DNA from: Marsupella aquatica
Lineage: Eukaryota; Plantae; Marchantiophyta
Direction: 5' to 3'
Assembly: GCA_973895155.1 (NCBI GenBank)
Contig: OZ316893.1
Location: forward strand, 2,686,430-2,750,429
DNA: 64,000 nt
How positions within the stretch are numbered: the first letter of the stretch is position 1; each line of letters begins with the position of its first letter. The position numbers and the translations under genes were made by a program. Below are positions 150 through 64,000 of this stretch, piece by piece. The notes beneath the pieces are model-generated. The model made no database searches. It saw only the letters and a program-made list of their open reading frames with translations, and was not told the origin of the DNA.

Positions 150-3100
150 CACTACACTGTCTGTCGTTCATGATTTAATTGCGGGACTCGAAAGCTTTTA
201 GCACAAGGAATTCGACCTGGACCACTCGTGTATAAACACCTTAATTCCCGATTGAAACCGCCCAATTCATCTAATACCATGACATGACCACATGTCCTAC
301 TCGAGCTTGAAGAATGATAGCACAGAGGTAAAAAAATGGGGGAAGAGCACCTACCCGTCTTGCTTCCGAGAAGTATAACGGAACTTTCTGTGTTTCTATC
401 CATAAGATTTGATAATATAGATGACAATAATGAAGCTTCTCAAAACGATGCCGACGGAGGCCAAGGGGTGACGTCCCTGGCCAAAGTGACGTAGGCCAAA
501 GGGTGACGTAAGTCCAATAAGACCCCTTTTTATCACCGCATAATTGATGCACTCGCCTGTCCCAAGTAGATCAAGTGGAAAGTTGCCTGGAAACATCTTG
601 CATAGCTGCGAGGAAAACGTTTTCCCTAGCATTTCGATTGTCCTTAGCCATTCGATGAATGCCACCTACGCCTTTAGAGCTTTTTCACTTCATAAGATAG
701 CTTCCATATTTGTAGGAATCATGAGTTGACGGGATCTCCACCGAAACCTTTTGAACAAACTCTTGTCCAGGAACGAAGGAACAAACCTAGGCAGTTAGAT
801 TGCTTATCCTCTTCTCCCTGACTGTAGAGTAGAAATTTCTAATAACATGAAAAAAGTATGGGCATTCAGGCTTGTTTGACATAATCTTGGTGAAAATGCC
901 CCCTCTCTTGCCCAACTCTAAGCGAGTGGGGTTGGCCCCACCAATTGGACTAGGGACTGGACTCTCATTTCACATGTCCCCGGGGTCTTCACCTTTTTTT
1001 TTTCAATCCATCACGTGTAAATAAGTATAGGGGTTTTTTTATTGGGTTTAGTAAAATATTTTTGAATTTTTGTTGAAGAACATTAAGGTTATTTTAATAC
1101 AATTTTGAGAATAAGAATAATAAGGTTTTTTAAATCAAAATTGGGAATAAAAATTTATTGATTTAAGTTTTAGGGTGTTTATTCTCCCAAAAATTTGTTC
1201 GTGATATGAGACACCCCTTAGATTGAGACCCCGAGCACATGCCACACTGATTAAGGAGGACTTTACAAGACGTGCAGGCACTTATATATACCACACTACC
1301 AAAAAGACAGGAGCGCCAAACTGGGAGATATGGTCCCAAAGGCAAAAAAACCCAATTAGGGGGGATGGAAGCAAAAGACCCCAAGAAGACCAAAGAGGCC
1401 CAAGAAGTCAAGGAGTAACCTAGCAAATTAAACCAAAGCAAACTGGAGGGCCATTGCACACACTAAATATAGTGTCCTAGGGCTAGAAGCATTTTTTGTA
1501 TCCTTTTATTGCCCCCAAGGTCTTGTAAAACCAAGTGCAGCCAATGGTGTCAGATTAATTTACTAAAAGACAGATTGAGGACCCATTCCACATGAATGTC
1601 AGGTAATCTTTGGCTAAAGTCTTTCTAAATGTGAGAAGGGAAGATCTTATGAAGGACTTGTGGGTCCCTTTTAATATAAATGACTTAAAATAGAAATGGA
1701 CCAAGAGGCCAGAACACTAGACCACCAAGAGAGGTGGTCTAAAATCTAGGACAAAAGAGTGCTCCACATAAGCCAAAATTGGGCTGCACTACATTCCATG
1801 TAAGATTAGTAACAGGTTTGGTTGAAAGTGCCCCCAAGGTTTTGTAAAGTGAACAGCAGAAGTTTCTCCCAAATGGATGGCTCTGATCAGATCTTGGAGA
1901 CAAAAGAAAAAGTGGAAACTGCCCCCTACTTCTTGTAAAGCTTTCTTCTCACTTGTGTTTCAATGAACTTCTGTTTTGGCAATAATTTCAAAACAACAAC
2001 ACAATGACAACTATACAGATGTAGCGGGTATGTAGTTACATGTAATGTCCTTCCCAGACTAATCATCATAACTGCGATGGGACTGTAGCTGCCAGTAGTA
2101 TCAGGGTCATGTACTCTGCACAAATAGCCTTTGTAGACTGACCGCCATCATGCTTGTGGAAGTGCCAGTAAATTTGCTACACTGTACACCAGTGACAATA
2201 TAATTATTTAGTGCAACACCAAAATTAAAGTGGCTCGCACTAATGTGTGTGAACGTTTTTTTAAGATGTGAATCACACCAATTAAGTATGATATATCACA
2301 TTATTTACTTTGCATTGAGAGTCCGCTTGAGTCCCTGTTTTATACGTCAATTCTCAGTGTGCAATATTCAAGGCAAACACATCATTCAGTTCTAGTGTGA
2401 CCAAAAGTGTAACTCACTTCTTGTGAACTGTAAATAGTGTGACACCTGAAATAATGTGACTAACACTATTTTGTGTGACACATACAATTTAAATGGGGCC
2501 ATGCGAGGGGCCTGCAATTAGTATGACTAACACTAATTGTGGTGGACAGTGTAGCATTTTGGATTGTGTTTGGTGCATAATGATTTTTTGTTTTGGCATC
2601 CATTATACATTGTGAGCCAATGTGAGGCTTCACTGGTTATTTTTGATATGTGTAGGTGACCAGATTTAATTTGGGCCTAGTACATACCAATGATATAATA
2701 TAGGGGCAAGCTAGAAATTATGGTCAGTTGGTGGTACATTAGTAAAACACTGGATGATAGTATGGCTCTGGCAAGGGAATTAAACCCAATTTGTTCATTT
2801 TGTGGAAGCATAGATGTTTGCAACCTGATAGGTTGCAGTGAATCCCCTCTTTTGGGCCCTCTTTTCCCTCATATAGTATAGATTACACTGAAGGGTACGT
2901 GATATAGCAACTTTTGAAAGAGTAGAATGTGGACCTTTAGAAATTCTTAAATCTCTCAATTCTTGATGATAAGTAGAGATATTAGACTGGTTGGAAAGAT
3001 AGTTCCAACATGCTTCTAATGTGCTCAAGATAGCCCACTCCTTGGATAGAAAGGGAGATATTGAAGGTCAAACTTTTCCGATGAAAACTTATTGGAAATG

Positions 3101-3634
3101 AGAACTATATATGTCAATGAGTGTAGGTGCAAAAACTGTCAGAGTCCATTGGGATTGCAGGGTTCACTGCATGGGAGCATATATCACTTTTGAAGCTGAG
3201 CGGCAAAAAGTATTGTGAGTATTATGCAGTAGAGCTCAAAAAACCACATCACTCTGCGAGGGCCCAAATTATAGTAATTGTTGAGCTGTCTTGGCTGGTT
3301 GAAAATTTTTCTCAAGCTTATCTTTGAAGTTTAATCAAACCATACAAACTGGTTAGAGAAACAGCCAAAAATATCTTATTTGGAGTTACCTATTGCAAAC
3401 TTGGGGAAAGAAAGCCCCCTTACACACAAAGGTTGGTTCTGGAGACTCTAAGGGACTCCTGCACAACCAATCCCATGCTCCTCATAACCATAGTGTAATG
3501 TGATGATCTGACAGGATTAAAAAGGGTTATTTCAATAGGATATGGTGCTTGACACAATCACTTTCAATTCATTAACCAGTTATAGTATTTTCCAATTGGC
3601 TCGGTCATCACGCATTCCCATCACAACTGACATG
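150..3634 (-). mobile_element. Highly decayed L1-type LINE remnants, interrupted by the MITE and another small repeat
   Basis: Fragmentary W/C-rich minus-strand translations resembling the L1 ORF2 C-terminal region; no intact ORF. May continue on the far side of the hAT. Confidence 0.35.
2180..2551. mobile_element. MITE-like non-autonomous TIR element (372 bp)
   Basis: Ends CACTGTACACCA / TGGTGGACAGTG (1 mismatch) with TA on both sides; AT-rich interior with repeated GTGTGAC/GTGACTAACACTA motifs; no ORF. Confidence 0.65.
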
Positions 3635-3759
3635 CATGTGTGCCCGGTTTGATGTGACGGGCAACTTGTCGAGTTGCCCGGCACGTAAACTCGGCATTTG
3701 CCGGCCTGAAATGCTCTCATTTGACGCATATTCGTTTTTATTCCCCGACTCGACTCGAA

Positions 3760-4540
3760 CTTCTCCCGGCCCGGCCCGAACTCCTCCCGGCCTCTTCCCG
3801 GACCCAGCCCGGCCCCCCCCCCCCCCCTCTACCTCTCGTCACCCGGCCCCGGCTTTACGCCCCGGCTTTAAATCCCGGCCCGGCCCGGGTGGAGGGGGCC
3901 CGGGTGGGGGGGGAGGAGGCCCGGGTGGGGGGAGGGAGGAGGCCCGGCCCGGGTGGAGGGGGGCCCGGGTGGGGGGGTGAGGAGGCCCGGGTGGGGGAAG
4001 GGAGGAGGCCCGGCCCGGGTGGGGGGGGTGAGGAGGCCCGGGTGGGGGGGTGAGGAGGCCCGGGTGGGGGAAGGGAGGAGGCCCGGCCCGGGTGGAGGGG
4101 TGAGGGGGCCCGGGTGGGGGGGGGAGGAGACCGGGTCGGGAGGAGGACGAGGCCCGGGTGGGGGGAGGGAGGAGGGCCGGCCCAGGGGGAAGGAGGCCCG
4201 GGTGGGGAGGAGGAGGAGGAGGCCCGGGTGGAGGAGGAGGAGGCCCGGGTGGGGGGAGGGAGGAGGCCTGGCCCGGGTGGAGGGGGGCCCGGGGAGGGGG
4301 GGGGAGGAGGCCGGGTGGGGAGGAGGACGAGGCCCGGGTGGGGGAAGGGAGGAGGGCCGGCCCGGGTGGAGGGAGGCCCGGGGGGGAGCAGGCCCGGGTG
4401 GGGGGGGGGAAGGAGGCCCGGCCAGGGTGGAGGGAGGCCCGGGTGGGGGGGAGGAGGGAGGCCCGGCCCGGGTGAAAGGAGGGGTGAGAGGAGGGAGGAG
4501 GGAGGCCCGGCCTGGGTTAAGGGAAGATAAGCCCGGGTTT
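3760..4540. repeat. Left subterminal GC-rich array of the hAT (GGCCCGGGTGG/GGAGGA units)
   Basis: Many GGCCCGG(G) units separated by G-runs; C-rich at ~3760-3880, G-rich after. Confidence 0.9.
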
Positions 4541-5198
4541 TAGAGTTATGGATAAACTCAATTGAGATAAGCCATATCTGCTAATTTGGGGTTGTGACGA
4601 TTTCTCGCCTATCTAGTATTTCAACCCCGCTAAATATAGAATGTTTTTCCATTCTAAATTGTATAAAACTTTGAGTTTTTCTCATTAGACACACTTCACT
4701 AAAAGTAGAGCACTCTATGTAAAGAGATAGAAAAGACTTTTGTGCGCGCGTGCTTGGAGGTTTTACTCGGCATGTGGTAATACGCATAATAACTTTTTTC
4801 TTATCCCTTAACATTTAGTGGTACTTGTGGGTATTGTGAAACAAATGTTGACAATGTTGACATTCATGTACGCATGTTTGGAGCTAAAGCTTGACATGTG
4901 ATATTTTACATGATTATCACTAATTGTCTCATATGTTTTCACAATGTCGGCAAATGCTCATTAAATTATAGATATCACATACGTCGGATAGGAATGTTAA
5001 CAACCAGAAAACAAAAGAGAACCGCTGTGCGCATGTTTGGAGTTTGACTCGACATGTGATATTTCACAGTAGTTTTTTTTTCTCGTTTTATTGTTGTTAC
5101 TTCAAAAGACTAACAAATAATCATTCAATTTTTATTAAGTGACTATGTTTAGCGACGTATAAGAAGACACTTTGTGTGTAAAGTTCTTGTTTTCGATC

Positions 5199-8053
5199 AT
5201 GTCTTCCGAAGAAGATAAGTCGGGCAACTCATCAGCTCATTCTACTCCTGTTAGGCACGGTGGAAATCACAATCGAGATCGTAGTGCAAAATTTTCTCCA
5301 GTGTGGAAATATTTTGAACGATGTGATACGCCATCAGCGTGTAATGATATTAATCGTATATATCGAAGATGCAAATTTTGCAAGAAATATACAACGCATC
5401 ATGCAACACGAGCAAAAGCACATTTGATGGGAAACATACACAAAGGAGATGCGCCACCTTGCACAGGCTTGTATGAAGTTGTTGACTTAGATAACATCAA
5501 TAGAATGTACAATGTCATAAAGGTTGACCCATCCATAAAGTATAAACGAAGTGATGGAAGTCATGTTTTGTTATCCATGAGAGGTCGTAGGTCATATAAC
5601 CCATCCAATTCGCAAGCATCAACTCGAGACTCAAATTTTGTTGACCTCGATGAGGATGGAAATATGAGTCATCGAAGTAGAGCATCAAATTTTGCAAACC
5701 CAATCATGGATGCTTATCAAATTCCAAATAGAGCTCATTTGGATAAGTTGTGGGCCAAAGCTTTTTATTCAAGTGGTATTCCGTTCAATGTGTCGGAGAA
5801 TTCTTTCTTCCGTGAAGCAGTCACAGAAACCTCGAAAGGGATTGTAAATGGATATTCTCTTTTGGGTATGCGAAATTTGAGAATGAAATTATTGGAGGAG
5901 GCTAGAGTTGATCTTACAAAGGACATGACAAAAACAATGAAGGAGGCAAAACCTTTTGGATATTCCCTTTCATCCGATGGATGGGAAAATATCCGAAGGG
6001 AACCTTTGATGAATGTCATGTTGTTGAGTTCAAAAGGAGATTTCTTTTTGGATAGTTGGAACGCTGCACAAGCCGACAAGAAAGATGGGAAGTATCTTGG
6101 TGACATGTGGTTAAAATACATAGATGATATTGGCGCCGATCACATCATACGAATTGTTACTGATGGGGCGCCTGCAAATCGTGTAGCAGGTGAAGAGATA
6201 GTCATGAAAAAATATCCGCATGTGACATGGAGTTGGTGTGCTGCTCACGTTTTTAATTTGTTGCTAGAAGACATGTGTGGCCACAAGAATGTAGTGCTAG
6301 ATGAGCGGAAAAAAAATCCATTCAAAATGATTTTTAAGCACTTGAGATGGATAGTTAAAGCAGTTACATCATCATAAAAGTTGTCTGCAATATTTGTGAG
6401 GAAATCTGGGGACAGGAAGTTGTTAAATCCAAATGCAACGAGATTTGCAACAAATTTTTTAATGGCGCAGAGAGCATTGGAGCTAAGAGGAGCTTTACAA
6501 CAAATGGTCATTGATGACAAGTGGCAATCCTATCGTGATCGCCTGCCAGTTCGACCAAAGTCACAGGGGCATATGACGAGGGGAAAGGCAGACGAACTTA
6601 AATCGTGGATACAGCAAGATACATTTTGGGCTCAAGTAAAATCTACAATTGCTTTTTTCCTGCCGTTGGTGAAGATGTTGCGAGAATTTGATGGAGTTTC
6701 ACCACAGTCTCCTTGGCTATATTGGAGCTTGAAAAAAGGAATAGCTAAACTGGAGGCGAGCATGGAGGGTTGTACATTAGTAACAGATTACTTAAAACCA
6801 AAGATAATGAAAGTGTATATGGATCGACGAAAATCACTTACTACTGATTTCATGTTAGCAGCAGCATATCTGAATCCTCAATTTTTCTTCGATGAAGATG
6901 AAGATGTGGCAGGAGATGCAAAACTGTATAGAGGCTTCAATGATTACGTTCGTAGATATGCAGAACACAAGGTGAAGGCAGGAATCAACCATGATCGAGA
7001 TGTGACGACACTTATTTCTGACATCCAAATGCAGGCATTTGAGGCTCAAAAAAATTGCCAAATTCATCGGTTGCAATTAGAGGAGCACAATCGAATATTG
7101 GGAAATTAAGTCCAGGAGAGTGGTGGCATTTGTATGGAGCTGATTACGCGGAGCTAAGATTGATGGCGAGAAGAATCACGCATCAACAAATCTGTGCATC
7201 TTCATGCGAACGAAATTGGAATTTGTACGACTTCATCCATTCAAAAAGCCGTAATAGGTTGACCAATGATCGGGCAAAAGACTTGGTTTTTGTATTCACA
7301 AATTCGAGGGTGCAAAAAGGGCTCATGAAGGTGAGAAACCCTCATACGTCTATGTATAGACAATATGAAGAAAGAACAGCAACAAATGATGGCCCGAGGC
7401 CTACTTCCATAGAAGGATGTCACACTGAACAACATGGTGTTACATGTGCGGCTCTTGGAGAGGATGATGTGGAGGATTTTGATACAATTGATGACGTAGA
7501 TGAGGCTTTGCAAGGATTATCATTACACAATGATAGTCACATGTTGACTCGTATTCCACCAGATACTGAAATAAGTGATGTCGGAGAATGGGAAGATGAA
7601 ATGGATTTAATGATGTTCCCTACAATCGATGAGTCTCAAATTCAGGATGACGAGGACTACTCATTTGATGCAAACTTTGTAGTGCCTTCCCAACCAAACC
7701 CATCCTTCACATACCCAACATTGAATGTACAAAATGATGTCCAAGCAAGTACTTCGTACTTATTTCAATGACGAGGTGCTGCATCGGAGCTCTGTCCTGA
7801 GAGAACAACACCAACTTTGTTTGCGCAACCTGATGATGCACAGTGGGGACAATATGCTTCTCCAGCACAAAATATGTATGAAAGGCAGAACATGACAAAT
7901 CCATACACATCAAGCATACATGCCCGTGTTGGGGCATTTCAAGAATATCATAGCGCAGATCCAGTCCAATGGATGACAAGACAATTTCAATTTGATCGAC
8001 AGTTGCAAGAAAATGAGAACAATAACACAAGGTACTTTTTGTCACAACCTTGA
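5199..8053 (+). pseudogene. hAT transposase (BED zinc finger, DUF659/RNase H-like DDE core, C-terminal dimerisation domain), disrupted
   Basis: BED finger SPVWKYF..CKFC..H..C; SSDGW and IVTDGA (catalytic D,D); WCAAHVFNL (CxxH); PNATRF; EWW..CASSCERNW..HSKSRNRL (E, dimerisation domain). Split by TAA at 6375-6377, a frameshift near the A-run at ~7048-7054 and TGA at 7769-7771; the same frame then continues to 8053. Confidence 0.92.
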
Positions 8054-8165
8054 CATCTGTTTAGGTATTACATGCTAGTACTATACGACAAACTATGATA
8101 TACTATGCCGGATTGTGCATGTCCTATGCAATAAAATATGCTATACTAAACATTGAGTGTGCAAT

Positions 8166-10133
8166 CTACTCATTTCGGTTTTCATTGTCTTGCGCTTCTG
8201 CTTTCACCTCTGCCAGTTGCTGACAACGACGATGGCGACGAATAGATCGCTGCATGTTTTGCTCATCTGTTGTTGGTCGATTGGTCATGGTATATTCCTT
8301 CCACTGTTGGAATCTACCGCTGAATAACAAATTGTCAAAGTCACCATCTGACAAGTTGTATTCATTAACTGTGAAGTTGTCAATGGGCCTTGAATCGATC
8401 ATTGCCATTGCAATACTCTCTTGAGTCATGTCTTCAGTGTCTTGCTGTGTCTCCATTGGTGGCATTTGTTTCAACAAACCTCGTTGCTCATACTCTCGTT
8501 CATGAAATGGTTTCCGACACCAACATTTTTGGCTCTTCTTCATCCACCGAAATAAGCAAGCATGATGCCATAAGTGACCGCATGTTCCCAAAATGGAAAC
8601 AGATTCAGGACCTCATGGATACAAGCACCAAATACATCTTCCATCCTTTTCTCGAACAAATTGGGCCATACTTTCATCGGTCTTCCACTTGTCAAAAAAT
8701 TTCTCTACATCTTCTGGATCCTCCTCCACATCCGGAAAAAGATGAGATTCTCCCGTAGGATCAATCATTTGCAAGTTCATATAATTGTAGTTCTTGCATC
8801 TTGATTTTTTCTTGTCTGACTGACCATCCACCTCAGCAGTGTTCATTTGCTCGATCTCCTCTTGCAGATTGCTTATGATCACCTCTTGTGATGCAACCTG
8901 ATTCTTCAAATCCTGAATGACTCTATCTGCCTCTTGAACTTGTTTCATTTGACTACATTGACCATCCTTTTGGGCAAGTTGTTTGTTGAGCTTTGCGATC
9001 TCCTCCATCTTGTCGTACAGTTGCACCTTGTATTCCTTCACCTCCGAAGTAGTTGCACTTTGAATGGGAATTTTTTCCATTGCTTTCATCTTCAAAAGAT
9101 TATCTTGCAACTTTGACTTATAGTAGTCAATGCTGCCAGCTTCACAAAGGTCAAGACAAAACTTTGTGCGAAGATTGTTCTCGATCAAATGACCAATCTC
9201 TGTGCTCAAACTCTTGCACACAATCTCCATGCTCAATGATTCTTTCTTTGGATCCAAAACACCAGTGAACTTTCCTGGTAAATTGTTACTTGTAGATGCT
9301 GCAATGTTTGATGTTTTGTCCACATATTTTGGTGCGCTGAAACTTTCAGATTTAGTGAAGAGTCATTCCAGTGCAGTCGGCTTATCTTTCTGATGTGCAT
9401 GAATGTCTTGCACATCATGTATCTTTCTTTTTGACCCTTTGTTGGTTGCTTGACTCGACATATCTTTTGTAGTATTTTTGTTGTTCTTCAAACCTGCAAT
9501 GTCCAGGACAGACTGATGCACAGAGTGAGTCATCTTGCCCTCTTCTGTTTCCCAACGGTAATCCACCTTCCACTTGAGAACAAATTCAGCAATTAGGAGT
9601 CGAAGAAAAGGAGGATAAACCGAGCTTGTTTTGCCTTGCGCTTTCTTTGGAGCATACTCTCGAAATCTTTGCTGCCAATGCTTGCCAATTTTCACATGTG
9701 TTACCTTGGACATTGTGTACTTCTCTTGCATCCAAGACCTTGTGGCCCATAAATTTTCATCATCAAAAATGATTTTCATCCATTTTTGGAACTCCACACG
9801 TGGCATCAATATCTCCAATTCTTTGGCGTTGATGGGCCATTCATTGTGAGGAGGTTTCACATTTGGCATTGTGATATTCCATTCAACATCCTTGGTGTCC
9901 TCATCCATTTTGGTTATGCTTTGCCCTGCATGATTGCTACTCATTCCAATGTCCTCGTCTATGGGTTGAGAATCTTCTTCAGCGTATTGATCCTGAGACC
10001 AAAGGTGTAAATCCTGAGCAGGTTGCAAATATAAATATGAAATCTTTTTAGATTTTTTCTCCTCGTCGGATTCCAAATCCCATTTTCCCATCCTTGCAGA
10101 TTCTACAATAACAAAAACATTTTTAGCATTCAT
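8166..10133 (-). pseudogene. Cargo gene: unknown N-terminal domain + coiled coil + C-terminal RING-H2-like finger (putative E3 ligase), two in-frame stops
   Basis: ORFs 9363-10133, 8613-9323 and 8166-8591 share one frame, separated by single TGA codons (9363-9365, 8613-8615). Read through, the C-terminus is CIWCLYP*GPESVSILGTCGHLWHHACLFRWMKKSQKCWC (C2..CxHxxHxxC..W..CxC). Heptad-like K/Q/E-rich segment upstream. Likely start is the ATG at 10091. Confidence 0.8.
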
Positions 10134-10275
10134 TCACCATACACCCTTCAAGATAAAATTGATAACAAAATACAATGAAGCAAAATGAGTAATACATTTA
10201 ATTCATATGACATGATTAAATAGACAATAGTTCATGACATCTATCATTGTCATTCACGATGAAACTATGAAATCC

Positions 10276-11934
10276 CTAATCTCTTAGATAAGGACTATTG
10301 TGCTGAACTAATCTACAATCTTGGAATGTTCTCATCATTCTCAAACTCCAATGAACACAATCCATTCTTTTCTTGACATCAATGGCCATCATGTCACGTA
10401 TCATAATATCCAATTTAGGGCCATGCTCTCTAGCATTCCAACCCCTATTCAAATATCGTGTCATTGGGGTCATTCCATCCCAATTTTCTGTGAGTAATGT
10501 CTCAAAGACATTGCCCAAAGCATATACGTCAGTTGCTTGACTGTACTCTGCTGGATCGGAACAAACTAGCTCAGGCGCCAATTGTGGATATTGTTTTTGA
10601 TATGCAATTGCTTTCTCTGTAGGGGTGGGCCACATTCAATTTTGTGGTAATGTGCATTGTGACTTGTGTTTGGACAACCCAAAATCACATATTCCTACAT
10701 AAACTCTAATTGCCAAATCATCATCGTGATCAAAGTGAAGAAGGATGTTTCCAAAATGAAGATCACAATGGAAACGGTCATGTGCATGCAAATATTGCAA
10801 GGTCTCCAATAGAGCCATAGCAATCCCCAAACGATGTTCCAAAAAGAGTTTCTTTTCGGATATGAATGTCACATCAACCTCAGAAGTGGATTGTGTCTTC
10901 CCTTTGCTCTTACTCCATTTCCCACACTTATCTATGAAACTTCCCAAGTCACCTCCATTGTAATGGTCATAGATAAGTTTTGGTGGATCTTCGATAGTCA
11001 TTGCCAAGGCCCCAATTATTCCTTTGTGATTCAAACCTCCCATGAGCACTTCTTGTAAAGCATCTGTTCGTCTCTTGTGTCGGTCTCCATCCTTAAATCG
11101 TTTTGCAACCAGTGTTGCATTTCGAGGAATCAATGGGCAATCCAATATATGACATATGAACACATGTCCTTGGATGCTGCTTCCAATGCGATGCAAATTC
11201 GATACTTGCTCCCTCCTCAAGAAATGAATACTCCTGACCATGGGAACAACTCGTGATGGACGCGTTCCTCTATCTGCAACCTCCACGCCAATCTCTCCAA
11301 ACTGCACGACCTTGCTCGCATATTTAACATTACTCTCCGATTTGGCCATTGCTAACTCTTTGCTCCATTTAGCTAGCAAATCTCTTCTATGTGTGTATAG
11401 CCCAGGAACTCCAAGCATGACGGCCCCAGCCTCATCCAAATTGGATTCCAACTTGTCCCAAAGATTCACCGCAAAATTCAACGCCAAATGTTCAACAAAT
11501 CCACCTGGCTTCTCAAAATCACTTATTAAGGAAGCAATTTCATCTCGGGTCATGTCCTCTTCTTTCTCCGCAGTCTCACGCATGCAACGTCCCATGTCAT
11601 TTAAAAGCTTTTTGTAACCCTCTGCTCCATGCATAGCATATTTCCTCTCAAAGCCATCCTGCTCATACTGTGCTGGCAAAGTGTAGGGATATAGAATCTT
11701 TTTCCAAATCGCAACTAACACATGTTGCCTTCTCTCTTTCAATGCAGCACCAATTGCTCCTCCTCTATGTTTCCGTTTCCCTAAGGTTTTACCATGTTTA
11801 CAAATTTCTAAGGTTTTGTGAGCATTCCTTAGAGCATTGAGAGCATGAGGATCTGGTTGGTATCCCTCGTTTAGCATGGTCTTCATTGCCTCAAAAAGTT
11901 TCATATACTCTACACTCACATTTGCAGCGGCCAT
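10276..11934 (-). pseudogene. Cargo gene: protein kinase (ePK fold) with N-terminal extension, one in-frame stop
   Basis: Subdomains in order: IGSSIQGHV (Gly loop), LVAKRF (Lys), QEV (alphaC Glu), YDHYNGGDL, YLHAHDRFHCDLHFGNILL, ICDFGLS, LAPEL, TDVYALG, DVKKR. ORFs 10636-12042 and 10276-10635 are contiguous in frame across TGA 10636-10638. First ATG at 11934. Confidence 0.88.
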
Positions 11935-12647
11935 GTTCTCAAGTAACCACAACAAGTTGTAGGACAAAGAAAAGGCGCTTACGGAGTGTGTTGGCTGCTT
12001 GCCGAGGGTATGGATGATGCAAGTACAATAAAGCTGGATCAAGAATCCTGAAATATCATTTCACACTTTGTGTTGGTACCAATAATACCCAAGCAATGAA
12101 ATTTTAATATTTGTTCAATTTTTTATTCGTTTGTTTAGTACTTTGAAAGTAACAACGATGAGGGGGAAAGACAACTATGTGAAATACCACATGCCAAGCC
12201 GAAACTCCAAGCATGCGCACAAAAGATGTCTTTTTCATCAAGTTGTTACATTCCTATTCCAATCTATGTGAAACCTATAGTTTAGATGTCATTTGTAAAT
12301 GTTGTGAGAATATTTACAAGGAATCGAGATATCCATGCAGAATACCACATGCCGAGCGGAAACTCCAAGCATGCGTACATGAAAATCTCTATCCTAAAAA
12401 ATACTCCACTCAATTCACAAATCACACTAAACTGTTAAGGCGATATTAGGTTCTCTCATACGAAATACCACATGCCAAGCATAAGCTCCAAGCATGCGCA
12501 TACGTGAGAACACTAATATCCCTCCAAATTAAAACTAAATGTTAAAGTCATACATGACAAAGCATAGCAAAAAAAAAGACCAAAAACAATTCAAAAACGA
12601 ATGAACTAAACTCAAAACAAAGCAAAACATAAGCAAAAGCAAGAAAA

Positions 12648-12736
12648 ACTTACCAAAGGTCTCTCCTACAAAACAAGCAAACTTAGTAATGAGAAGTGAC
12701 TAATGAGAGAAAGTGAGGAGACCTCCTCACTTTATA
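12648..12736 (-). promoter_or_regulatory. Putative TATA box, leader exon and splice donor for the cargo transcript
   Basis: On the minus strand: TATAAA (12736-12731), a CT-rich leader, then a perfect GTAAGT donor (12653-12648). Candidate acceptors are TTTCAG at 12048 and TTGTAG at 10103. Confidence 0.5.
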
Positions 12737-12737
12737 G

Positions 12738-13200
12738 GCCCGGTCCCGGTCTGCCCCCCCCCCACCTCGCGAGCCGACCCCGGGTGGCCGAGCCCGATCC
12801 CCCCCGGCGGCTGCCCTCCTCTCGCGTGACCTAACCCTAAAGTCCCCCCCGGCCCGGCCCACCCCCGCCCGACCTCCCGGCCGGGAGGGGGGGCTTTAGG
12901 GTCCGGGCCGCGAGAGGGGGGGGCTTTAGGGTCCGGGCCGGGAGGGGGGCTTTAGGGTCCGGGCCGGGAAAGGGGGGGGGGGGGGCTTTGGGGTCCGGAC
13001 CGGGAGAGGGGGGGGGGCTTTGGGGTCCGGGCCGGGGGAGGTTTAGGGTCCGGGGTCGGGAGGATGAAGGATCCGGGGTCCGGGCCGGGGGGGTTTAGGG
13101 TCCGGGGCCGGGAGGGAAGAGGACCGGGAGTACTCAGGCCGGGACCGGATTTACTCGGGCCGGGACCGGATGATGCCGACCGGGAGAGACCGGGTGTCGG
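12738..13200. repeat. Right subterminal GC-rich array of the hAT (G-run + CTTTAGGGTCCGGGCCGGG units)
   Basis: About 7 units of G(n)CTTT(A/G)GGGTCCGGGCCG at 12885-13110, plus CCGG repeats toward the TIR. Confidence 0.9.
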
Positions 13201-13262
13201 CTTGCCGGTTGACGGCCTTAAAACGGCCTATTTGCCGGGCAAGTCCAAACCGGGCATGTGTG

Positions 13263-14150
13263 CCACATATCCACCTACGCAAACGCATTGTGTCATTGAC
13301 AAGCCCACAGGTCCTGCCTACCAAATCACTAAAAAAAACAATTCATGGTGGGTGGAAAGTACCATAATTGCTGTCGTCCTCGGATTGTTTTGGACACTGG
13401 GTTGCCTATCTTAGTGCACACTCTTGGGAAGAATCCCATGCCTTGCGTTTACAGGTTGTTGGTATTACATGATAAATGTATTTTCTCTAACGCTTTGTAA
13501 AAACTGGTGCAACCCCCATAGCCTCACCTCTTACTTTATATGTAATGCCTCAAATAGTGTCTACAAACATTCCTCGTGCCTCTGTCCCTTGTCACATTCA
13601 AGAAGCCGCCACCTCGTGTTTGGGCACTATTCTAGTGGCTTCCCCGGGATAGTACATCATTTCCTAAAACTTTCTCCTATCTCCTAATTGGAACAGTTAC
13701 TCTATGTAAGATTTATAAGTCTTCCGCACAGGATTCAAATTCTTACCCATAATTTGACTCATACCTCTTACAAAAGCACTTGCACTTACATATTATTGTT
13801 AAGTGGAGATCCACTTATAGAACTGCAAAACAGTAGGGAAGAAAATGGTCTCCCTTGCAATAAGTCAGGGCTTGCACTTATCTAGAGTATATTCAGGCAA
13901 AAAATGCAAAATGGTAGGGAAAAGGGCGACCAGCCTGCATTGCAATAAGCCATGGTTTGCACTTATGGAGTGTGCATTTAGACAGAGGCAAATATCTTCC
14001 CACACTTGGCGGAGAGTAAAAAGTCATATCACGATAAGCCTTTTTTTTAGTGGCATAAGTTTGCTGGATTCCACCTTACGCAAAGTGTTCTGCACATTTG
14101 CCGCCAAATTTTGCTGGATTTGTTTTTCCACTAGCGAGATTCCCAGCTAC
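13263..14150 (-). mobile_element. Decayed LINE fragment (endonuclease-like region)
   Basis: Minus-strand pieces FYSPP / LRQVWEDI / KP*LIA resemble the APE endonuclease IYAP..LW..PWLIAGDFN motifs; heavily interrupted. Confidence 0.35.
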
Positions 14151-14477
14151 TGTAGCCAATCTTTCAATCGTTCACCAAGGGTGACATTTGCCACATAGGT
14201 GAAAACGGAAAAAACCTTGAAAATCCTTTAGCCCCGATCTAATCATTCTAAATTTAAGTAACCAATATTCTTAGCATCTTCTTCTTCACCCGTTCACCAA
14301 GGGTATCATTTGGTGAAAAGAATAAACCCTGAAATCCAATAGGCATAATCTTACGTTTATAGTCAAATCTAGGGAGATCTAACCCTCCATTCAAATGAGA
14401 TAACTAAGTAATATTATTAGAATCTTCTCCTTCACCCCTTCTGCCAAGGTTACCTTCTCCACCGAAAAGAATCACCC

Positions 14478-14893
14478 TCGGGGCATCACCTTGAAAATTA
14501 CACTAATCAAGGATCGACCACGGGGCATCACCTTGAAAATTACACTAATCAAGGATGACCCTCGGGTAACCATGAAAATTACGCTAATCAGGATCACCTT
14601 CGGGGCATCACCTAAAATAAAATTACGCTAATCAGGATCACCCCCGGGGCATCACCTAGAAAACAATTACGCTAATCAGGATCACCCCCGGGGCATCTTG
14701 AAAATTACGCTAATCAGGATCACCTTGGGAACACCTTGAAAATTACGCTAATCAGAATCACCTTCGGAACACCTTGAAAATTACGCTAATCAGGATCACC
14801 TTTGGAACACCTTGAAAATTTACGCTAATCAGGATCACCTTCGGAACACCTTGAAAATTACGCTAATCAGGATCACCCTCGGGGTATCACCTC
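14478..14893. repeat. Minisatellite, ~38-44 bp unit, ~10 copies
   Basis: Unit approximately GGG(G)CATCACCTTGAAAATTACGCTAATCAGGATCACCTTC repeated head-to-tail. Confidence 0.92.
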
Positions 14894-15557: not shown

Positions 15558-16307
15558 ATGGACACCCGGGAGGGTGCTGCTCAGGTGAAGCAACAGCATC
15601 ATCAAGTCCTCGTGTACACAGAGACTCCGAAGCCAATCGTTGTGGGTGCGGATGATTTCCAGAACTTGGTTCAAAGTCTTACTGGTGGGAAGCGAAAGAG
15701 GAAGTCGGTCACCTTCGCCTTAGTAAATGCAGGGGAAGCAGCAGAAGCCCAGCAGGAGTATTTGCCGCAGGCACCACCACCAGCCAGGGTGCAGCAACAG
15801 CCATTGCTGGATTACTTGGACAGACTGGACAAGGAATGCCCTCCACGATCCACTGGGGCCCAGCGAAACCGAGGTTTCTTCGCCACAGCAGGACTAGTTA
15901 AAGGAGTGAGGAGGGAAGAAGGTTTGCCGCAATTTGACACGTTTGATTCTCCTTTGGGCTCTTCAGCCCGCAATTTTGAGCCCAAAGATGCAGAAATGGC
16001 TGAGAAAGCATCGACTACGGTTTGCAGTGTCAAGGTCTTGACTCCGATTAGTTCCCTCCAAGGTTGCAAGCGCGTGTGTTCTGAATGGGTCCCCGAATGG
16101 ACGGGCTGCCTTTCACCACGCTCCGGTCAGGTAGTCGAGGAAGCAAAGAGGACTGCGGCCCTTTGGAATCGATCCGGGTTAGGGCCTTGGAATATAAATC
16201 TAGAGAACATTGCAGAAAGTGATGGCTGCGGCCGGGATGACGATTGTGGCTATCCAGTGGACATCCTCTACTACAAGGGAGAAATCACTATGGTTGAGCA
16301 GACTTAG
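15558..16307 (+). CDS. VQ-motif-containing protein
   Basis: ADDFQNLVQSLTG matches the plant VQ motif FxxhVQxhTG, followed by a basic KRKRK NLS-like patch. TATA-like CTATAAAG at ~15319. The 3' end is uncertain because of the overlapping ORF 16210-16761. Confidence 0.75.
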   Translation: MDTREGAAQVKQQHHQVLVYTETPKPIVVGADDFQNLVQSLTGGKRKRKSVTFALVNAGEAAEAQQEYLPQAPPPARVQQQPLLDYLDRLDKECPPRSTGAQRNRGFFATAGLVKGVRREEGLPQFDTFDSPLGSSARNFEPKDAEMAEKASTTVCSVKVLTPISSLQGCKRVCSEWVPEWTGCLSPRSGQVVEEAKRTAALWNRSGLGPWNINLENIAESDGCGRDDDCGYPVDILYYKGEITMVEQT

Positions 16308-18327: not shown

Positions 18328-19720
18328 TTTTTTCTTTTTCTTTTTTTGCCTTGAAAAAAACCAAAGAATTCCATTCATTTAGTTAGCATACAAAAAGGGG
18401 GGCCTCAAAAAAGAGGCACCAACCCATGGGGACCAGACGTCAACATGCTCGGACCGGTGAGGCCAGAACCAAGTAAGAAACTAGGTCTCCAGAAAGACAA
18501 ACCAAACAAGCAATTTGTGTTGAGCATAGATGACATTCGTAACAGCAAGCCCATGAACCATCCAACGCACAATAGTCGACACAGAGAGATACGTGATTCA
18601 CCTCCACATGAGGCTACGTCCACGGGAACACACAAGAGCTTTACTGCACTCTAGGCCGACCGGCCATACCAAACATCCACAGCACAAGCTCTCCATATCT
18701 CTCAACTAGCTCCGTAACAATGAGCCTAAGTTCCACCAAGGTCTAGCATCAGCCCTGGCTATATGCACAACAGCACTACCGCTAACATTAGCTAAGTCCT
18801 AACCCGAGTTAGACTAACTGTAGTTAGCTCATGAGTCACAAGACTAGAGCAATATCTAACAATTTGGAGACTATGACAGGAGTAGCACACTCCCAAAGCC
18901 CGGCCAGTGGTCTGGGACCGGCGGGGCCCCATACACTGGGTCGGTGATAAGAAAGAACCTATTAGTCTAGAAGTAACACAGCCTCAAAACCTGAGGAACA
19001 TAAAGTCTAATGGTGGACAAGGTGGGACTGGTTGAACTTGGAGCAGATCTTAGTGAATTTGCTAGAGTCCATCCCAAGTTCCAAAGGCCATTGACATTTT
19101 GTATTGAGTTTCACCGCATGTGATCTTCCCATTTCTAACCCTGGTTTTAAGCCTGGCCCAATCCCTTTGGAGGTAAACTCCTAGAGGCTGCCAAGGTTTC
19201 TGAATAATTCTCTGTGGATTGGGCTGGGTGTGCTCAATAAAATGTACGCATCTATCTTTCCAGATGGTCCAGCAAATGATGGTTGGAACAATGTGCCACA
19301 AACGCTTAGGAATGTCCCATTGCTTTGGCAAAGGTTCCCCAACAAAAATATGTACGGGTAGCAGTTGTATCCGGGGTCCCTGAGAGAAAGCACATTGTTG
19401 AAGGATGGGTTGGACCCATGTCCAGACCAACTGCGATATGTTGCATTCCCAAATGCAATGAATGAGATCTTCATGTATATATTCCCAAATGCAATGAATG
19501 AGATCTTCATGTATACGTTCCATACAGTACAGACATTAACTAATACTTTGGAGCCCCTCCATGGAAGTGTATGGCATTGCGAGAATGCCCAAGTGAAGTC
19601 GTCTGCACCTCACTTCTGCATCAAGAGTTGCCTAATCTCAAATTGAAGTATGAGGGTGGTCTCCTTCAGCCAGGGCCCAAAGGATGAAGACTTTTCACTT
19701 CTGATATAGATCTCAATTTC
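18328..19720 (-). mobile_element. 5'-truncated L1 LINE 3' end (zf-RVT region) with poly(A) tail
   Basis: ORF 19062-19523 has EDLIHCIWEC..SQLVW and IICWTIWKDRC, with CLYC upstream, typical of the plant L1 C-terminus. The T-run at ~18328-18347 reads as poly(A) on minus. Interrupted by a solo LTR. Confidence 0.7.
18518..18861 (-). mobile_element. Solo LTR related to the copia LTR at 43497
   Basis: TG...CA ends; 5-bp TSD ATTTG (18513-18517, 18862-18866); 18518-18730 is the reverse-complement homologue of ~43705-43917. Confidence 0.88.
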
Positions 19721-41840: not shown

Positions 41841-43529
41841 TATAGTCAGGTAACCCAGTGCCCACCAACTCACTAGTCAATGTTCACCAGGAACGCAATC
41901 ACCAGCTCACCCTTGAGTTGACCCATCTATGAGCTCTCAACGTGATTATAACTAGACATCAAGCTATTGCTAATCCAATTTAATTGTTGTTGCAAAAAAG
42001 TTGGATGTGCAGTGCTCAGGAGAATCACTACAATCAGTGTTGTTGTTAGCAGAACAGACACTAATAACTAGGCCAGCAATCAGTGTTGTTGTTAGCAGAA
42101 TAGACACTAATAACTAGGCCAGCAATCATGTCTCCTTATATTTTCTTATGCACTCTCTTTTGCACTTTGCCAACATGCCCAAGCATATTTCTTCCTCTGC
42201 CAAGTTCCTATGTAGCACATGAGGAGATAAAATAATCAGAAGACAGCATCTGGCCTATTGGACAGGATGACATGAGATATGGAGGGAATGGGTGGCAGAG
42301 ATAGAGGCAATGACACTGTCAAAGTCACAAAACTACTTTGTTACAACATCAAAAATTCAAGAATTAAAGAGACACTCTCAATTTTTCCAGGATATCAAGA
42401 ATTCCAAAAATAATCGAAGACATCCAATCTGTGATACGAATTTTCTTCTTGTGATGGGGAGAGTTTTTCTAGGGAAAGATTTTACTATCCTCGAATTGAT
42501 GAAGATCATGTACAATGCGCATAATGAGTAAGTTGGTTTTCCTACACCCTTTTGTGGATGGAGTGACTGTATGTTTGTACCATTAGTGCCAAAAGCCCTG
42601 ACAATGTTCTTTGATATCAAATTGAAGGCAGAGAACCCTAGTGTATGCTATTTCTTTGCCTTCACTCCTCGTAGCAATAGCCAACCTGCAAAAGCCATTA
42701 ATTAGCGTGAAGACACATGAGAGAATTCATGGTCATATATGATAGGCCGGAAGGTGCCTTTTGAAGGGTTCTACAAACATAGATTTTGATTCTACGCGTG
42801 CAAGGCTTAAACAAATTTTAAATTATTACCTGGGAAAAACATAAAAACCAAATTACAATTTGACACATATAGGGTTTAAACAAAATTGTAACCTGGGCAC
42901 AACAAAAAAACCAAATTACAATTTTATAGCAAAAATTTTATATACACATTTTCAAATTGGCTAAAATATGTACTAGCAAGGTATTGGAATAATGCACACC
43001 TATATTTCAGTGGCATATAGAAGTCAGCTCCTAGGGGGGTCACTTCCACGGAAGTGGCATATCAGGTGCGACAAAGTATAGGCCCATTTAAATGGGTGTG
43101 GCCTCAAGGGCCTCAATCCAAGGGGTGTCCCATATCACGCACGAAGTTTGGGGGAAATAAACACCCTAAAACTTAAGTCAATAAAGTTTTTTGAGGAACT
43201 TTGTTACCTTTAACTCGATAGAATATTCCCAAATTTGATTTCCAAAAACCCTATGATTGCCCACACAGGCATGACTTTATGGTAGTTCACTTAAATATAG
43301 ACTGATAGGTCTTGGGTTCAACTATTGTGGCTGACTCTTCCCTTTCTATGGGGTTTCATAGATTTCCTCCTTAGGGGTTTCACTTCCATAAAAATGACAC
43401 ATCACGTGCGATGAAGGATACAGTCATTTTATTGGTTCTAAGGGAAGACTTAAGAATTTATGCAGAAGAACAATAGGGTCTTTTAAATTCTATTTTTGTT
43501 GGGTATTTACTCTTACGTCTAGGTTAGGT

Positions 43530-43660
43530 ATGACGTGGTTGGTACAACAACGTGGGTTGGTACAACTACGTGGTTAGGTACAACTACGTGATTAGGTACA
43601 ACTAGGTGGTTAGGTACAACTACGTGATTAGGTACAACTATGTGGTTAGGTACAACTAAG
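43530..43660. repeat. 18-bp tandem array inside the LTR (also at ~49604-49734)
   Basis: About 7 copies of GGTTAGGTACAACTACGT and variants. Confidence 0.92.
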
Positions 43661-45071
43661 TTGCACACTATATCATAAGAGGCATGTGTGCTTGGAGAGG
43701 TAGAACCAAGGCTCATTGTTATGGAGCCACTTGAGAGATAGGGAGAGCTTACACTGTGGAGACTCGGTATAGCCGACGGGCTTAGAGTTCAGTAAAGCTC
43801 TCTTGTGTGTTCCCGTGGACGTAGCCTCAAGGAGGTGAACCACGTATCTCTTGTGTCGACTATTGTGCGTTGGATGGTTCATGGGCTTGCCGTTGCGATC
43901 GTCGTCTATGCTCAACAATTGGTATCAGAGCATGCTTGGGAGGTGACGTATGTTCGTGACGGGATTTCATGACGGTTTTTCCAGCGTTGAGTGTTGGTGG
44001 ATTTTCCAGAGTTCCATCGCATGGAACTTGGAGTTTATGGGCTCAACGGATAGATCAGGGCAAGAGCTTTCTAACGGTGTGAAGAAATCGTTGAACGGAG
44101 CTCGTGGTGCAGAGAGATCTAAGTTTTTGTCGTTCTGGATTTTGTGAAGAAAGTTGGCAATCGACTCGGAGGGAGAAGCGTCAAGTGTTTTGACTCAACG
44201 GAGAGATTGAGGCAAGACGATTGTTTTTGAGTCCGGGATTGGCTCTTTGATGCAAAGAGGAAGGCTAAGCAAAATCAATTACCTTGTTGGACTTGGTGAC
44301 GGCACCAAGTGCAATTGATCAACATTCGTTGTTGACAAGGTACCATTTATTTCTCTTTGAAAAACTGATTCGAAATTGGCTATGGCAATTGAAAGAAATC
44401 TGTCATCTTTACCAATTTTTTTCTCCCTCGTTCTTTCCTCGTTTTGGGTGCTTCTTATATCGATCTTCATCGCCTCGGAGTCTAGTTTCCAAATCTGAAA
44501 TCGGATCTTGATTTCGTCAAAACCCGAGTGAGATATCTTGCGTTTGGTGTCGAGGGGTACATTCTGCCGTGTGTATTTTCTGCGCGCGCGACCAGATTTC
44601 GACGACGAAGGGTGGTAGGGGGTTTTGGGGGTTCGAGGACACATGTCAGCCCCTCGATTGTTCTTCCAAAATTCCCACAGGGCCTGTACAAGGGTCATAG
44701 AATATTCCAAAAAACCAGAGAGCTATTTTTTGACCGTCCGACAAAGATTTCATCCGCCGAACGGTAACTTTTTTGGTTATTTTTCGGCGAGGTCATAGCC
44801 ATTGAAGTTGGCAATGCAGCGCACCAATCACATCGCAATTCCGACAACGGGTTGTACTTGGTATTTCGGTTATTCCCTGAGGTGGTCAAAACGGGGGAGT
44901 TTCCCAAGGTTTTACCCACCTCGACCAAAATTTGAATAACTTTTCCGTCAAATTTCGATTTTGATTTTGGTTTTCAGTATTGGACTCCTAGCTTTGTGGG
45001 CTACGCGGCGGTGTTGAGTTTCGAGTTTTTTGAGAAGTTGTGAAAAACAACATTTTTTGTGACTTTCTCAT

Positions 45072-46106
45072 ATGAGTGATTCGGAGGAGTTTTTCGAAGA
45101 CGTGGAACTTGAAGCACGAGGATCACCGCGGAGGTTTCAGGGGCAGAGAGAGGAGCAGGAGGAAGAGCACGTGACACCGATACCATCACCGGTGCGGCGT
45201 GTGGTGGAGGAAGCAGTACTACTACCGGAGCTCACGGTAAAGAAGAAGATGGGGACTTTCAAGCTTGGGGGACCCAAGTATGAAGTGACAAAGTATGATG
45301 GGCGCTCTGACTACTTGCTATGGGAGAAGCAGGTGAAGGGAGTGCTTTATGCGTCAGGGATGGGCCAACTGCTGAGCCCTCGTGAAGACGATGTTGATGA
45401 GAAACAATGGGACCGCATGCAGGAGCAGGGAGTGTGGTGTGTTACACTCTATCTCATGCCTCCCATCATCAAGCAGTTAGGTGCACATAAGGATTGCATG
45501 TCCTTGTTTGCGGAATTGCAGAGCAAGTATCACCGCAAGGAGTTGTCGAACCGGCTCTACACTTCCTACAAACTGATGAGTTTCAGGATGAAGGAATCTG
45601 GTACGAAGTTGCAAGACCATGTGGATGCTTTCAACGACATGGTCGTTGACTTGGAAAACCTTGGGGAGACTTTGAATGATGAGACGAAGGCTCTGCAGCT
45701 TCTTAGTTCATTGCCTCCATCTTACCAGTCCCTATCACGAGTGTTGTTGCATCGTGATAGGGATACCATTTCATACAATGACGTGGTAAGTTCTCTGCTT
45801 AGTGATGATCTTCAGCAGAAGATGCACATCACGTCACAGCCTTCATCATCTGGTGTTGCCCTCAATGTTAACCGTGGGAGGAGTATGCAGCGACCAACTG
45901 GGGACCGTAGAACCCAGTTTAGATCTAAATCCAGATCTAAGTCCAAGGGTAAATCCCCTCAGAGGAGGCAGGTGACATGTTGGAAGTGCAACCAAGTTGG
46001 ACACTTCAAGCGAGACTGTAAGGGAAAGGCAGCGGAAACTTCATCGGCAAATGTGGCTAGGGCTGATGGAGAAGCTGATTTACTCAATGATGAGTATGTT
46101 TTATGA
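45072..46106 (+). CDS. gag: Copia Gag with CCHC zinc knuckle
   Basis: KYDGRSDYLLWEKQVK, LLSSLPPSY, CWKCNQVGHFKRDC. Confidence 0.92.
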   Translation: MSDSEEFFEDVELEARGSPRRFQGQREEQEEEHVTPIPSPVRRVVEEAVLLPELTVKKKMGTFKLGGPKYEVTKYDGRSDYLLWEKQVKGVLYASGMGQLLSPREDDVDEKQWDRMQEQGVWCVTLYLMPPIIKQLGAHKDCMSLFAELQSKYHRKELSNRLYTSYKLMSFRMKESGTKLQDHVDAFNDMVVDLENLGETLNDETKALQLLSSLPPSYQSLSRVLLHRDRDTISYNDVVSSLLSDDLQQKMHITSQPSSSGVALNVNRGRSMQRPTGDRRTQFRSKSRSKSKGKSPQRRQVTCWKCNQVGHFKRDCKGKAAETSSANVARADGEADLLNDEYVL

Positions 46107-49100: not shown

Positions 49101-49379
49101 CTTATCACTGAAATGGGATTGCCACAGGGGAATGTGAAGCTCCATTGTGATAGTCAAAGTGCGCTCCACCTTGCTGTGAACCAGGTGATGGACAGCAGAG
49201 TGAAGCACATTGACGTCAGGTACCATTTTATCAGGCAGGCTGTGTCTGATAATTTATTTGAGCTAGTCAAGATTGATGGTAAACTCAACCCGGCTGACGC
49301 ATTTACCAAAGTGATTCCTTTGGAGAGTTTCTCTAGACACCGTGACGTATTGCAGGTTTTGCAATTGCATCACAAGTAG
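46107..49379 (+). pseudogene. pol: Copia Pol (PR-IN-RT-RNase H) with in-frame stops
   Basis: WILDCACSFH (PR); WHSRLGH..CEHC, HSDVWGP, FIDDYSR, RSDNGGEY (IN); [28 protein letters not shown] (RT); GYVDSD, TEAEY, ADAFTK (RH). Stops at 46818-20, 47034-36 and 48309-11, all in the gag frame. Confidence 0.93.
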
Positions 49380-53604: not shown

Positions 53605-53924
53605 CGTGACCAACCCATGATCATTCAATGCACAAGTAGTCAACACAAAGAGATACATGGTTCATCTCAACTGAGGCTATGTCCATAGGAATACACAAGA
53701 GCTTTATTGCACTCTAAGCCCATCGGCCACACTGAGTCTTTGCAAATACAAGATCTCTCTACTCTAAACTGGCTCCGTAACAATGACCTTGAGTTCCTAC
53801 TATCCAAACAAACACGGCTTTGGATATAGTGTGCAACATGACTAACCTAACCAAGTCTGCAACTAAGGTTAGCCCTAATTACAGTTACAGTTGTAAGTCT
53901 AGACCTACGAGTAAATGCTTAGCA
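53605..53924 (-). mobile_element. Degenerate LTR of the same family as 43497/18518
   Basis: Reverse-complement similarity: CCCATGA..GAGATAC..GGTTCA..TGAGGCTA.GTCCA..ACACAAGAGCTTTA..GGCTCCGTAACAATGA..GATATAGTGTGCAAC..GAGTAAAT. Confidence 0.72.
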
Positions 53925-63910: not shown

Positions 63911-64000
63911 CTTTGACTATAGTATGTCCATTGTACTCATTACAAGAGCATTATAAGATTTTGTCACCTAGTTGTCCCCTGGTAAAGAAAGTACAATTTG

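Follow-up and report, generated by a model that had tools for sequence, protein, structure and literature searches.

A duplicated three-hairpin block as a candidate RNA cis-element of both transcription units in a liverwort hAT transposon

A hAT transposon with two convergent transcription units

The 64,000-nucleotide stretch of Marsupella aquatica DNA analysed here (contig OZ316893.1, positions 2,686,430 to 2,750,429; hereafter the window) harbors a 9,612-bp hAT transposon (3643-13254) with two convergent transcription units, each of which carries ahead of its genes an array of three related motifs that are the apices of long stem-loops. The element has the features of a hAT, namely a transposase with a C-terminal dimerisation domain and, at its borders, a short (9-bp) terminal inverted repeat (TIR) and an exact 8-bp target-site duplication; a border reading with a 10-bp duplication and an 8-bp TIR is equally good. 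The transposase on the + strand faces two genes on the - strand, the cargo, which encode two separate proteins, a kinase (cargo 1) and a RING-finger protein (cargo 2; Table 1). This copy is a pseudogene with four stops and one frameshift: the transposase has a stop at 6375-6377 and the frameshift near 7050, cargo 1 a stop at 10636-10638, and cargo 2 stops at 9363-9365 and 8613-8615. Transposase homologues free of such breaks are 801 and 807 amino acids (aa) long, and DUF659 and the dimerisation domain occur together in the unbroken homologue P0025.

Eleven homologues were recovered for the cargo 1 kinase, five of which share a ..YLRD/..FLRD terminus; its structure model is poor (predicted local distance difference test, pLDDT, 57) and matches kinase N-lobes alone (Z at most 7.1). 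Cargo 2 is a protein of about 620 aa, of which the conserved N-terminal domain (9447-9899) is confidently modelled (pLDDT 84) and has nine relatives, beside one repetitive chance match, among 1.84 billion representatives; fold searches with it gave no Foldseek match at E 0.001 and a best Z of 2.9, a result that indicates neither a new fold nor a function. The named homologues of the cargo proteins come from the liverwort Calypogeia fissa, and a kinase-profile scan of viral contigs returned 44 pattern matches, none of which was confirmed.

Six motifs in one duplicated block

An earlier note on this DNA had described three direct and three inverted copies of a motif, with mirrored spacing and a sequence common to the middle copies. 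All six were recovered as 36-nt cores, on the + strand in the left arm and the - strand in the right (Table 1), with start-to-start distances of 124 and 159 nt on the left and 123 and 158 nt on the right, and TTCATGTACGCATG is present in both middle copies. A covariance model of the six copies, which recovers them by construction, gives exactly six matches in the 64 kb (75-82 bits); there is no seventh copy in the window, where the next match reaches 15 bits (E 1.1), and by this search the motif is not a repeat dispersed within it.

The likeness extends beyond the cores: positions 4746-5117 align continuously, spacers included, to 12499-12130 (70.6% identity over 381 columns, E 2e-34), with identity in 86 of 108 columns at the apices and 122 of 211 between them. 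Each of the three spacers matches its own mirror partner only (with a score that none of 1000 shuffles attains), and non-partner pairs give negative scores. A single block of three units, about 370 bp long, has been copied in inverted orientation, so that one version stands behind each of two TATA boxes; the mirrored spacing is real but, because it is the product of this single duplication, it is not independent evidence. The block is internal, lying 1.1 and 0.75 kb from the element ends. A motif scan of viral contigs gave no matches, and 28 motif loci from metagenomes, none of them blastn-similar to the element or showing the extended context, were taken as chance.

Stem-loop structure and covariation

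Folded in context, each of the six motifs is the apex of a long stem-loop (88-155 nt, 32-60 pairs), three of which stand back to back in each arm, and the folds of the whole leaders have z scores of -4.94 and -6.27. A common apex of 66-67 nt is found in the sense-strand RNA fold of all six copies: an 8-bp stem, a UG bulge, 3-4 bp and a 3-6-nt loop, beneath which a 6-nt 3' bulge precedes the lower stem. The upper stem, its UG-bulged part included, totals 12 bp in every copy. The sense apices have z scores of -2.55 to -4.41; the antisense folds are weaker in all six, four of them still reaching -2.5 to -2.95, as expected for any inverted repeat, and the sense folds hold 35 G.U pairs versus nine in the antisense folds. 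The hairpins could also fold as DNA, more weakly and with less strand bias, and hAT transposition is not known to pass through single-stranded DNA. Other windows of low folding energy (z about -3 to -5) lie near the TATA boxes at 4540-4700 and 12620-12740.

The pairing is preserved by compensatory change while the sequence drifts. In the six-copy alignment 110 of 114 cells are paired and seven of the 19 pairs are altered on both sides; none of 500 shuffles reaches the covariation score, and slid-register controls pair in 21-48%. Pairs predicted in one arm transfer to the other at 116 of 147 positions against a null mean of 91 (0/5000), and reciprocally at 104 of 137 against 87 (1/5000); outside the apices the transfer is 63 of 83 (2/5000), with a weaker reciprocal of 69 of 102 (63/5000). 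Between copies, the apex cores are 77-100% identical and the lower stems 28-69%.

Conservation in other copies of the element

Other copies were viewed through contig pile-ups in sequencing runs, where depth is not copy number. Within the element, contig depth is about 5-80 times that of the flank in runs X1-X3 (organisms A and B), rising and then falling near the two element ends, which is consistent with a multi-copy family. Among 40 of the 90 variants recorded for 12120-12570, four lie outside the hairpins and 36 were used. Fifteen of these 36 fall at unpaired sites, which make up 22% of positions (binomial p 0.007), and at paired sites each of the 12 transitions leaves pairing intact, where 56% would be expected to do so (10 of 10 with three homologous sites counted once).

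In organism C (runs X5 and X6), at 80% likeness, coverage is nearly confined to the three apices, where peak depth is 1,300-14,600 versus 2-71 in bins lying wholly between them, and the lower stems are uncovered. Elsewhere in the element, high depth in X5 is confined to bins in conserved coding regions of the transposase, the kinase and cargo 2. The consensus letters of the loose ends in X5, read by hand, show lower stems that differ in sequence yet pair, at 11 of 12 positions beside R1 and nine of nine beside R3, two of the latter being G.U pairs possible on the sense strand only; the length of the 6-nt bulge (RUANUN) is kept. Matching counts (6/6 and 15/14) suggest that these loose ends come from the same contigs, with a consensus agreement of just 0.56-0.72. 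In distant copies the motif is far more conserved than its flanks, as the conservation check set by the earlier note requires.

Joints in X5 place two apices in tandem on one contig, and in organism B the block is connected on diverged contigs with the transposase (X2 record 9 and X3 record 16) and, at joints 11568-12114 and 4982-11723, with the kinase. The array thus stays linked to both genes in a diverged subfamily, and the earlier proposal that the cargo arm belongs to the element as an evolved component is therefore upheld, as is the presence of the same array in both inward-facing units, three hairpins behind each TATA box. Separately, high-depth contigs in X3 skip about 100 bp between apices (joints 4759-4862 and 12225-12321), which suggests subfamilies differing in hairpin spacing or number.

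Predicted promoters and leader introns

A TCTCATTAG.CAC element, of which the right-arm mirror is an inverted repeat, is common to both arms, and in each arm the hairpin block lies downstream of the predicted start site. Each block falls within a predicted 5'-leader intron. All 34 upstream ATGs of the two leaders lie inside these two introns, and the leaders that would remain are short and ATG-free. The 5' part of the right intron is 60% U and its donor, GTAAGT, is canonical. In both arms hairpin 3 ends directly before the branch-point-like sequence.

Cargo 2 begins 185 bp past the kinase stop, and these 185 bp hold a strong candidate acceptor and no obvious promoter; homologue P0017 reads through a similar FFFVGFAR stretch ahead of its Met. 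As judged from the sequence of 10104-10275, a single cargo leader may be spliced alternatively to the kinase or to cargo 2.

Table 1. Positions in the window of the element's genes, hairpins, predicted signals and ends
Feature	Position	Strand	Evidence or remark
hAT transposase (weak BED finger, DUF659, hAT dimerisation domain)	5199..7771	+	Pfam DUF659 E 4.6e-28, Dimer_Tnp_hAT E 2.7e-8
Cargo 1: helical N-terminal region and Ser/Thr/Tyr-type protein kinase (HCD, DFG)	10276..11934	-	Pfam PK_Tyr_Ser-Thr E 5e-13
Cargo 2: N-terminal domain of about 150 aa, coiled coil, C-terminal RING-like finger	8166..10091	-	full-length homologue P0019 (624 aa)
Hairpin L1, apex core 4747-4782	4719..4812	+	-29.2 kcal/mol sense vs -17.7 antisense; z -2.55
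Hairpin L2, apex core 4871-4906	4813..4966	+	60 pairs; -54.9 vs -36.6; z -3.46
Hairpin L3, apex core 5030-5064	4992..5103	+	-34.3 vs -25.7; z -4.41
Hairpin R3, apex core 12217-12182	12145..12253	-	-36.0 vs -30.8; z -3.14
Hairpin R2, apex core 12375-12340	12279..12433	-	60 pairs; -63.4 vs -39.5; z -4.16
Hairpin R1, apex core 12498-12463	12437..12524	-	-41.2 vs -28.2; z -3.91
TATA box (4662-4668) and TCTCATTAG.CAC initiator-like element (4680-4692), transposase unit	4662..4692	+	predicted start site
TATA box (12736-12730) and TCTCATTAG.CAC element (12708-12696), cargo unit	12696..12736	-	predicted promoter
Predicted 5'-leader intron (GTAAAG ... GACTAAC ... TTTAG), holding the three left hairpins	4719..5152	+	removes 15 of 15 upstream ATGs; 66% AU
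Predicted 5'-leader intron (GTAAGT ... TACTAAAC ... TTTCAG), holding the three right hairpins	12048..12653	-	removes 19 of 19 upstream ATGs
Candidate distal 3' splice site (U-rich tract, TTGTAG)	10104..10130	-	predicted; 12 nt before the cargo 2 ATG
Left 8-bp target-site duplication (CATGTGTG)	3635..3642	+	same 8-mer at 13255-13262
Left TIR (CCCGGTTTG)	3643..3651	+	exact reverse complement at 13246-13254
Right TIR	13246..13254	-	exact reverse complement of 3643-3651
Right 8-bp target-site duplication	13255..13262	+	matches 3635-3642
Left GC-rich subterminal repeats (CCCGG core)	3760..4530		likely transposase-binding region, by analogy with hAT biology
Right subterminal repeats (CCCGG core, six TTTAGGG/CCCTAAA units)	12735..13245

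A candidate RNA cis-element coupling transposase and cargo

We propose, with a probability of roughly one half, that the block constitutes a multivalent RNA cis-element that would couple the expression of transposase and cargo via an RNA-binding protein. The six stem-loops would form in RNA, three in the predicted leader intron of the transposase and three in that of the cargo, transcription through the block and its intronic position both being predictions. Their apices would serve as a repeated docking site, so that one RNA-binding protein would control both transcripts together; it would read the apex (the UG bulge, the G.U pairs and the 6-nt RUANUN bulge) as presented on long helices during transcription and, once bound, would promote productive splicing or processing. 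An invariant bulged tip on a sequence-free helix, three times per transcript, would be the pattern expected of such a multivalent protein-binding RNA element.

Either the host or the element might supply the partner, the latter in the form of the cargo 2 N-terminal domain. In that second, speculative case this basic and unmatched domain would close a feedback loop, for which Tat/TAR and Rev/RRE offer the comparison. The fuller scheme, in which an element-encoded protein (the cargo 2 N-terminal domain, perhaps tuned by the kinase) would bind the six tips and license the transposase and cargo transcripts in the manner of Tat/TAR or Rev/RRE, with alternative splicing possibly directing the one leader to the kinase mRNA or the RING mRNA, is a tentative extension that we regard as doubtful.

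Several points weigh against the proposed cis-element. The left donor site is just moderately consensus. The cargo 2 domain has no match indicating RNA binding in the fold searches (best Z 2.9), and it is only mildly basic (24 K+R versus 19 D+E). The common ancestry of the six copies inflates the shuffle tests, whose counts are not probabilities, and about a quarter of the cross-predicted pairs fail to transfer between arms. Among the variants used, nine of the 21 at paired sites, all transversions, break the pair with the partner base of the window; their partners may be among the other 50 variants recorded. For the diverged high-depth copies of organism C there is no contig spanning an apex and a gene, and the link between apex and hAT there is suggested by co-abundance and the tandem joints.

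The main rival, possible though on balance unlikely, is a different role for the same RNA: the intronic hairpins would be a polycistronic set of small-RNA precursors that DCL1 processes from loop to base, the apex being the processing signal. The products, or the cut itself, would then tune how strongly the element or host genes are silenced, as is the case for miR820 in rice CACTA elements. Their length of 88-155 nt and minimal folding free energy index (MFEI) of 0.79-1.13 are within the range of plant microRNA (miRNA) precursors, judged by the customary MFEI threshold, and each of the six hairpins has 9-54 windows of 21 nt that satisfy a simple duplex filter. A miRNA carried by a transposon has been described (PMC3459959), and precursors processed from loop to base keep a conserved upper stem of about 15-17 bp (10.1101/129684). 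The small RNA, however, would be located in the lower stems, and these are the most variable portion (28-69% identity between copies, and below 80% likeness in organism C), whereas conservation is the rule for ancient miRNAs and for the sites they target (10.1101/129684). Both arms of the apex change in step, which points to structural constraint, and a one-sided 6-nt bulge separates apex from stem. Rfam gave no match, and the best complement in the element's own genes scored 3.5.

The earlier note had instead proposed shared cis-regulatory or element-protein binding sites, with the BED finger and cargo N-terminal domains as candidate binders. On this view the motifs would be double-stranded DNA sites with dyad symmetry, bound by the BED finger of the transposase or by a cargo protein in a VANC-like manner. 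In its favor, two CATG dyads stand 21-22 bp apart in every copy, apex conservation is very high, and VANC proteins bind tandem repeats in the non-coding regions of their own elements (PMC10398659). It leaves unexplained the flanking stems of 30-60 pairs with their compensatory changes and the excess of G.U pairs on one strand (35 sense versus 9 antisense): conservation follows single-strand pairing, with changes on both sides and with G.U pairs that would be lost on the antisense strand, in copies that lie downstream of the TATA boxes and thus within the predicted transcript. VANC targets, moreover, diverge rapidly (PMC10398659), whereas the motif is the most conserved non-coding part here. 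Separate subterminal repeats of hAT type also exist, with 66 CCCGG/CCGGG units in the left 888 bp and 30 in the right 520 bp versus two in the intervening 8204 bp, and they are better candidates for transposase sites than the six motifs. Thus, that the motifs are shared by both units and belong to the element holds, while their nature as DNA-binding sites is improbable and that part of the claim is probably wrong.

Equally improbable in our estimate are structures that would act with no dedicated partner, giving the spliceosome a shorter or better organised intron or swaying whether the kinase acceptor (12048) or the distal cargo 2 acceptor (10104) is used. The end of hairpin 3 right at the branch-point-like sequence in both arms would suit such a role, as would the good acceptor and lack of an obvious promoter in the 185 bp ahead of cargo 2, but scaffolding alone would not call for an apical sequence that stays invariant in all six copies and in three organisms. 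That the block is a neutral relic, captured fold-back DNA or repeats like miniature inverted-repeat transposable elements (MITEs) duplicated once and now decaying, would agree with the pseudogene state of this copy and the origin of the block by duplication, but it is very improbable and already largely refuted by conservation centred on the apex rather than on the ends, where that of MITEs lies, by the compensatory changes and by persistence in organism C. A cluster of H/ACA small nucleolar RNAs has the form hairpin-H box-hairpin-ACA with internal pockets; Rfam gave no match to one, and inspection by eye found no consistent H or ACA box.

Searched against Rfam 15, the hairpins have no match at the gathering score and five matches up to E 10, the best being mir-6 (22.5 bits against a gathering score of 58, E 2.8). 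We found no description of the element or the motif in listings from literature searches, though transposable-element libraries or miRNA tables in supplements could hold the family; 19 papers with sequence matches appear unrelated judging by their titles, and the available part of PMC12973397 mentions neither a kinase nor a liverwort. If the RNA cis-element is as proposed, the kinase/RING cargo would belong to the element as a co-regulated component rather than ride along as a passenger. The RNA motif is small and defined, and its partner could be directly fished out; were that partner encoded by the element, it would extend the range of RNA-binding folds by a new one and yield a portable RNA-protein switch for use in plants.

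Element ends and other features of the window

The six TTTAGGG/CCCTAAA units of the right subterminal repeats (12835-13100; none at the left end) correspond to the plant telomere repeat, and a short inverted repeat lies at about 3657-3682, just inside the left TIR. Beyond the element, 1.2 kb from its right end, stands a tandem array at 14467-14893 (38-44-bp unit with a AATTACGCTAATCAGGATCACC core), followed by an open reading frame (15558-16307) that has no Pfam match and contains a stretch, FQNLVQSLTG, resembling the plant VQ motif. Two 425-bp direct repeats that are 99.5% identical, starting with TG and ending with CA, mark a young long terminal repeat retrotransposon at 43496-49994, to which solo pieces near 18518-18737 and 53614-53837 are related. 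Two long tandem-repeat regions, at 55156-55968 and 59657-61021, have units of about 100-200 and 350 bp, and at 63001-64000 the GC content drops to about 11%, possibly an assembly artefact or foreign sequence.

Comparison with known systems

The element resembles plant hAT transposons of the DUF659 type in its BED-like finger, DUF659, dimerisation domain, short TIR, 8-bp duplication and subterminal repeats, and differs from them in its second, convergent unit with kinase and RING genes and in the duplicated three-hairpin leader. Two convergent genes driven by related end promoters recall maize MuDR, in which mudrA and mudrB converge from related promoters at the two ends (PMC3440606), within TIRs of about 215 bp. 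MuDR, however, is a Mutator element with its own transposase and long, promoter-bearing TIRs, whereas the element here is a hAT with a 9-bp TIR and an internal duplicated block that is 70% identical and of which the conserved part is an RNA structure; the convergent layout alone is held in common.

Structured RNAs of plant transposons are known mainly as stability elements at the 3' end, the elements for nuclear expression (ENEs), and as miRNA precursors. ENEs and double-domain ENEs (TWIFB1, Evade) are structured cis-elements of plant transposons, found also in transposase mRNAs, that have U-rich internal loops, sit in the 3' untranslated region and bind poly(A) (PMC7583470, PMC12501189). The hairpins described here are likewise a structured element carried by a plant transposon, but they occur in triplets at the 5' end, upstream of both start codons, and their apex is interrupted by a UG bulge of 2 nt and a 6-nt bulge on one side, with no two-sided U-rich loop. 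With miR820 of rice CACTA elements and with plant precursors cut from loop to base they have in common a precursor-size hairpin in a DNA transposon, a stable fold-back that could hold a 21-nt duplex and a conserved upper stem; unlike those, they have no conserved 21-mer in the lower stem, the miRNA/miRNA* region is not the most conserved, and the 6-nt bulge is asymmetric. The repeated non-coding motif beside element-encoded accessory genes parallels VANDAL/VANC, in which the DNA tandem-repeat targets diverge rapidly, whereas the motif here is strongly conserved and constrained as a single strand. Set beside these systems, the strongly covarying three-hairpin module, duplicated so that both units share it and with an apex preserved between organisms, would represent an undescribed layer of post-transcriptional control in DNA transposons.

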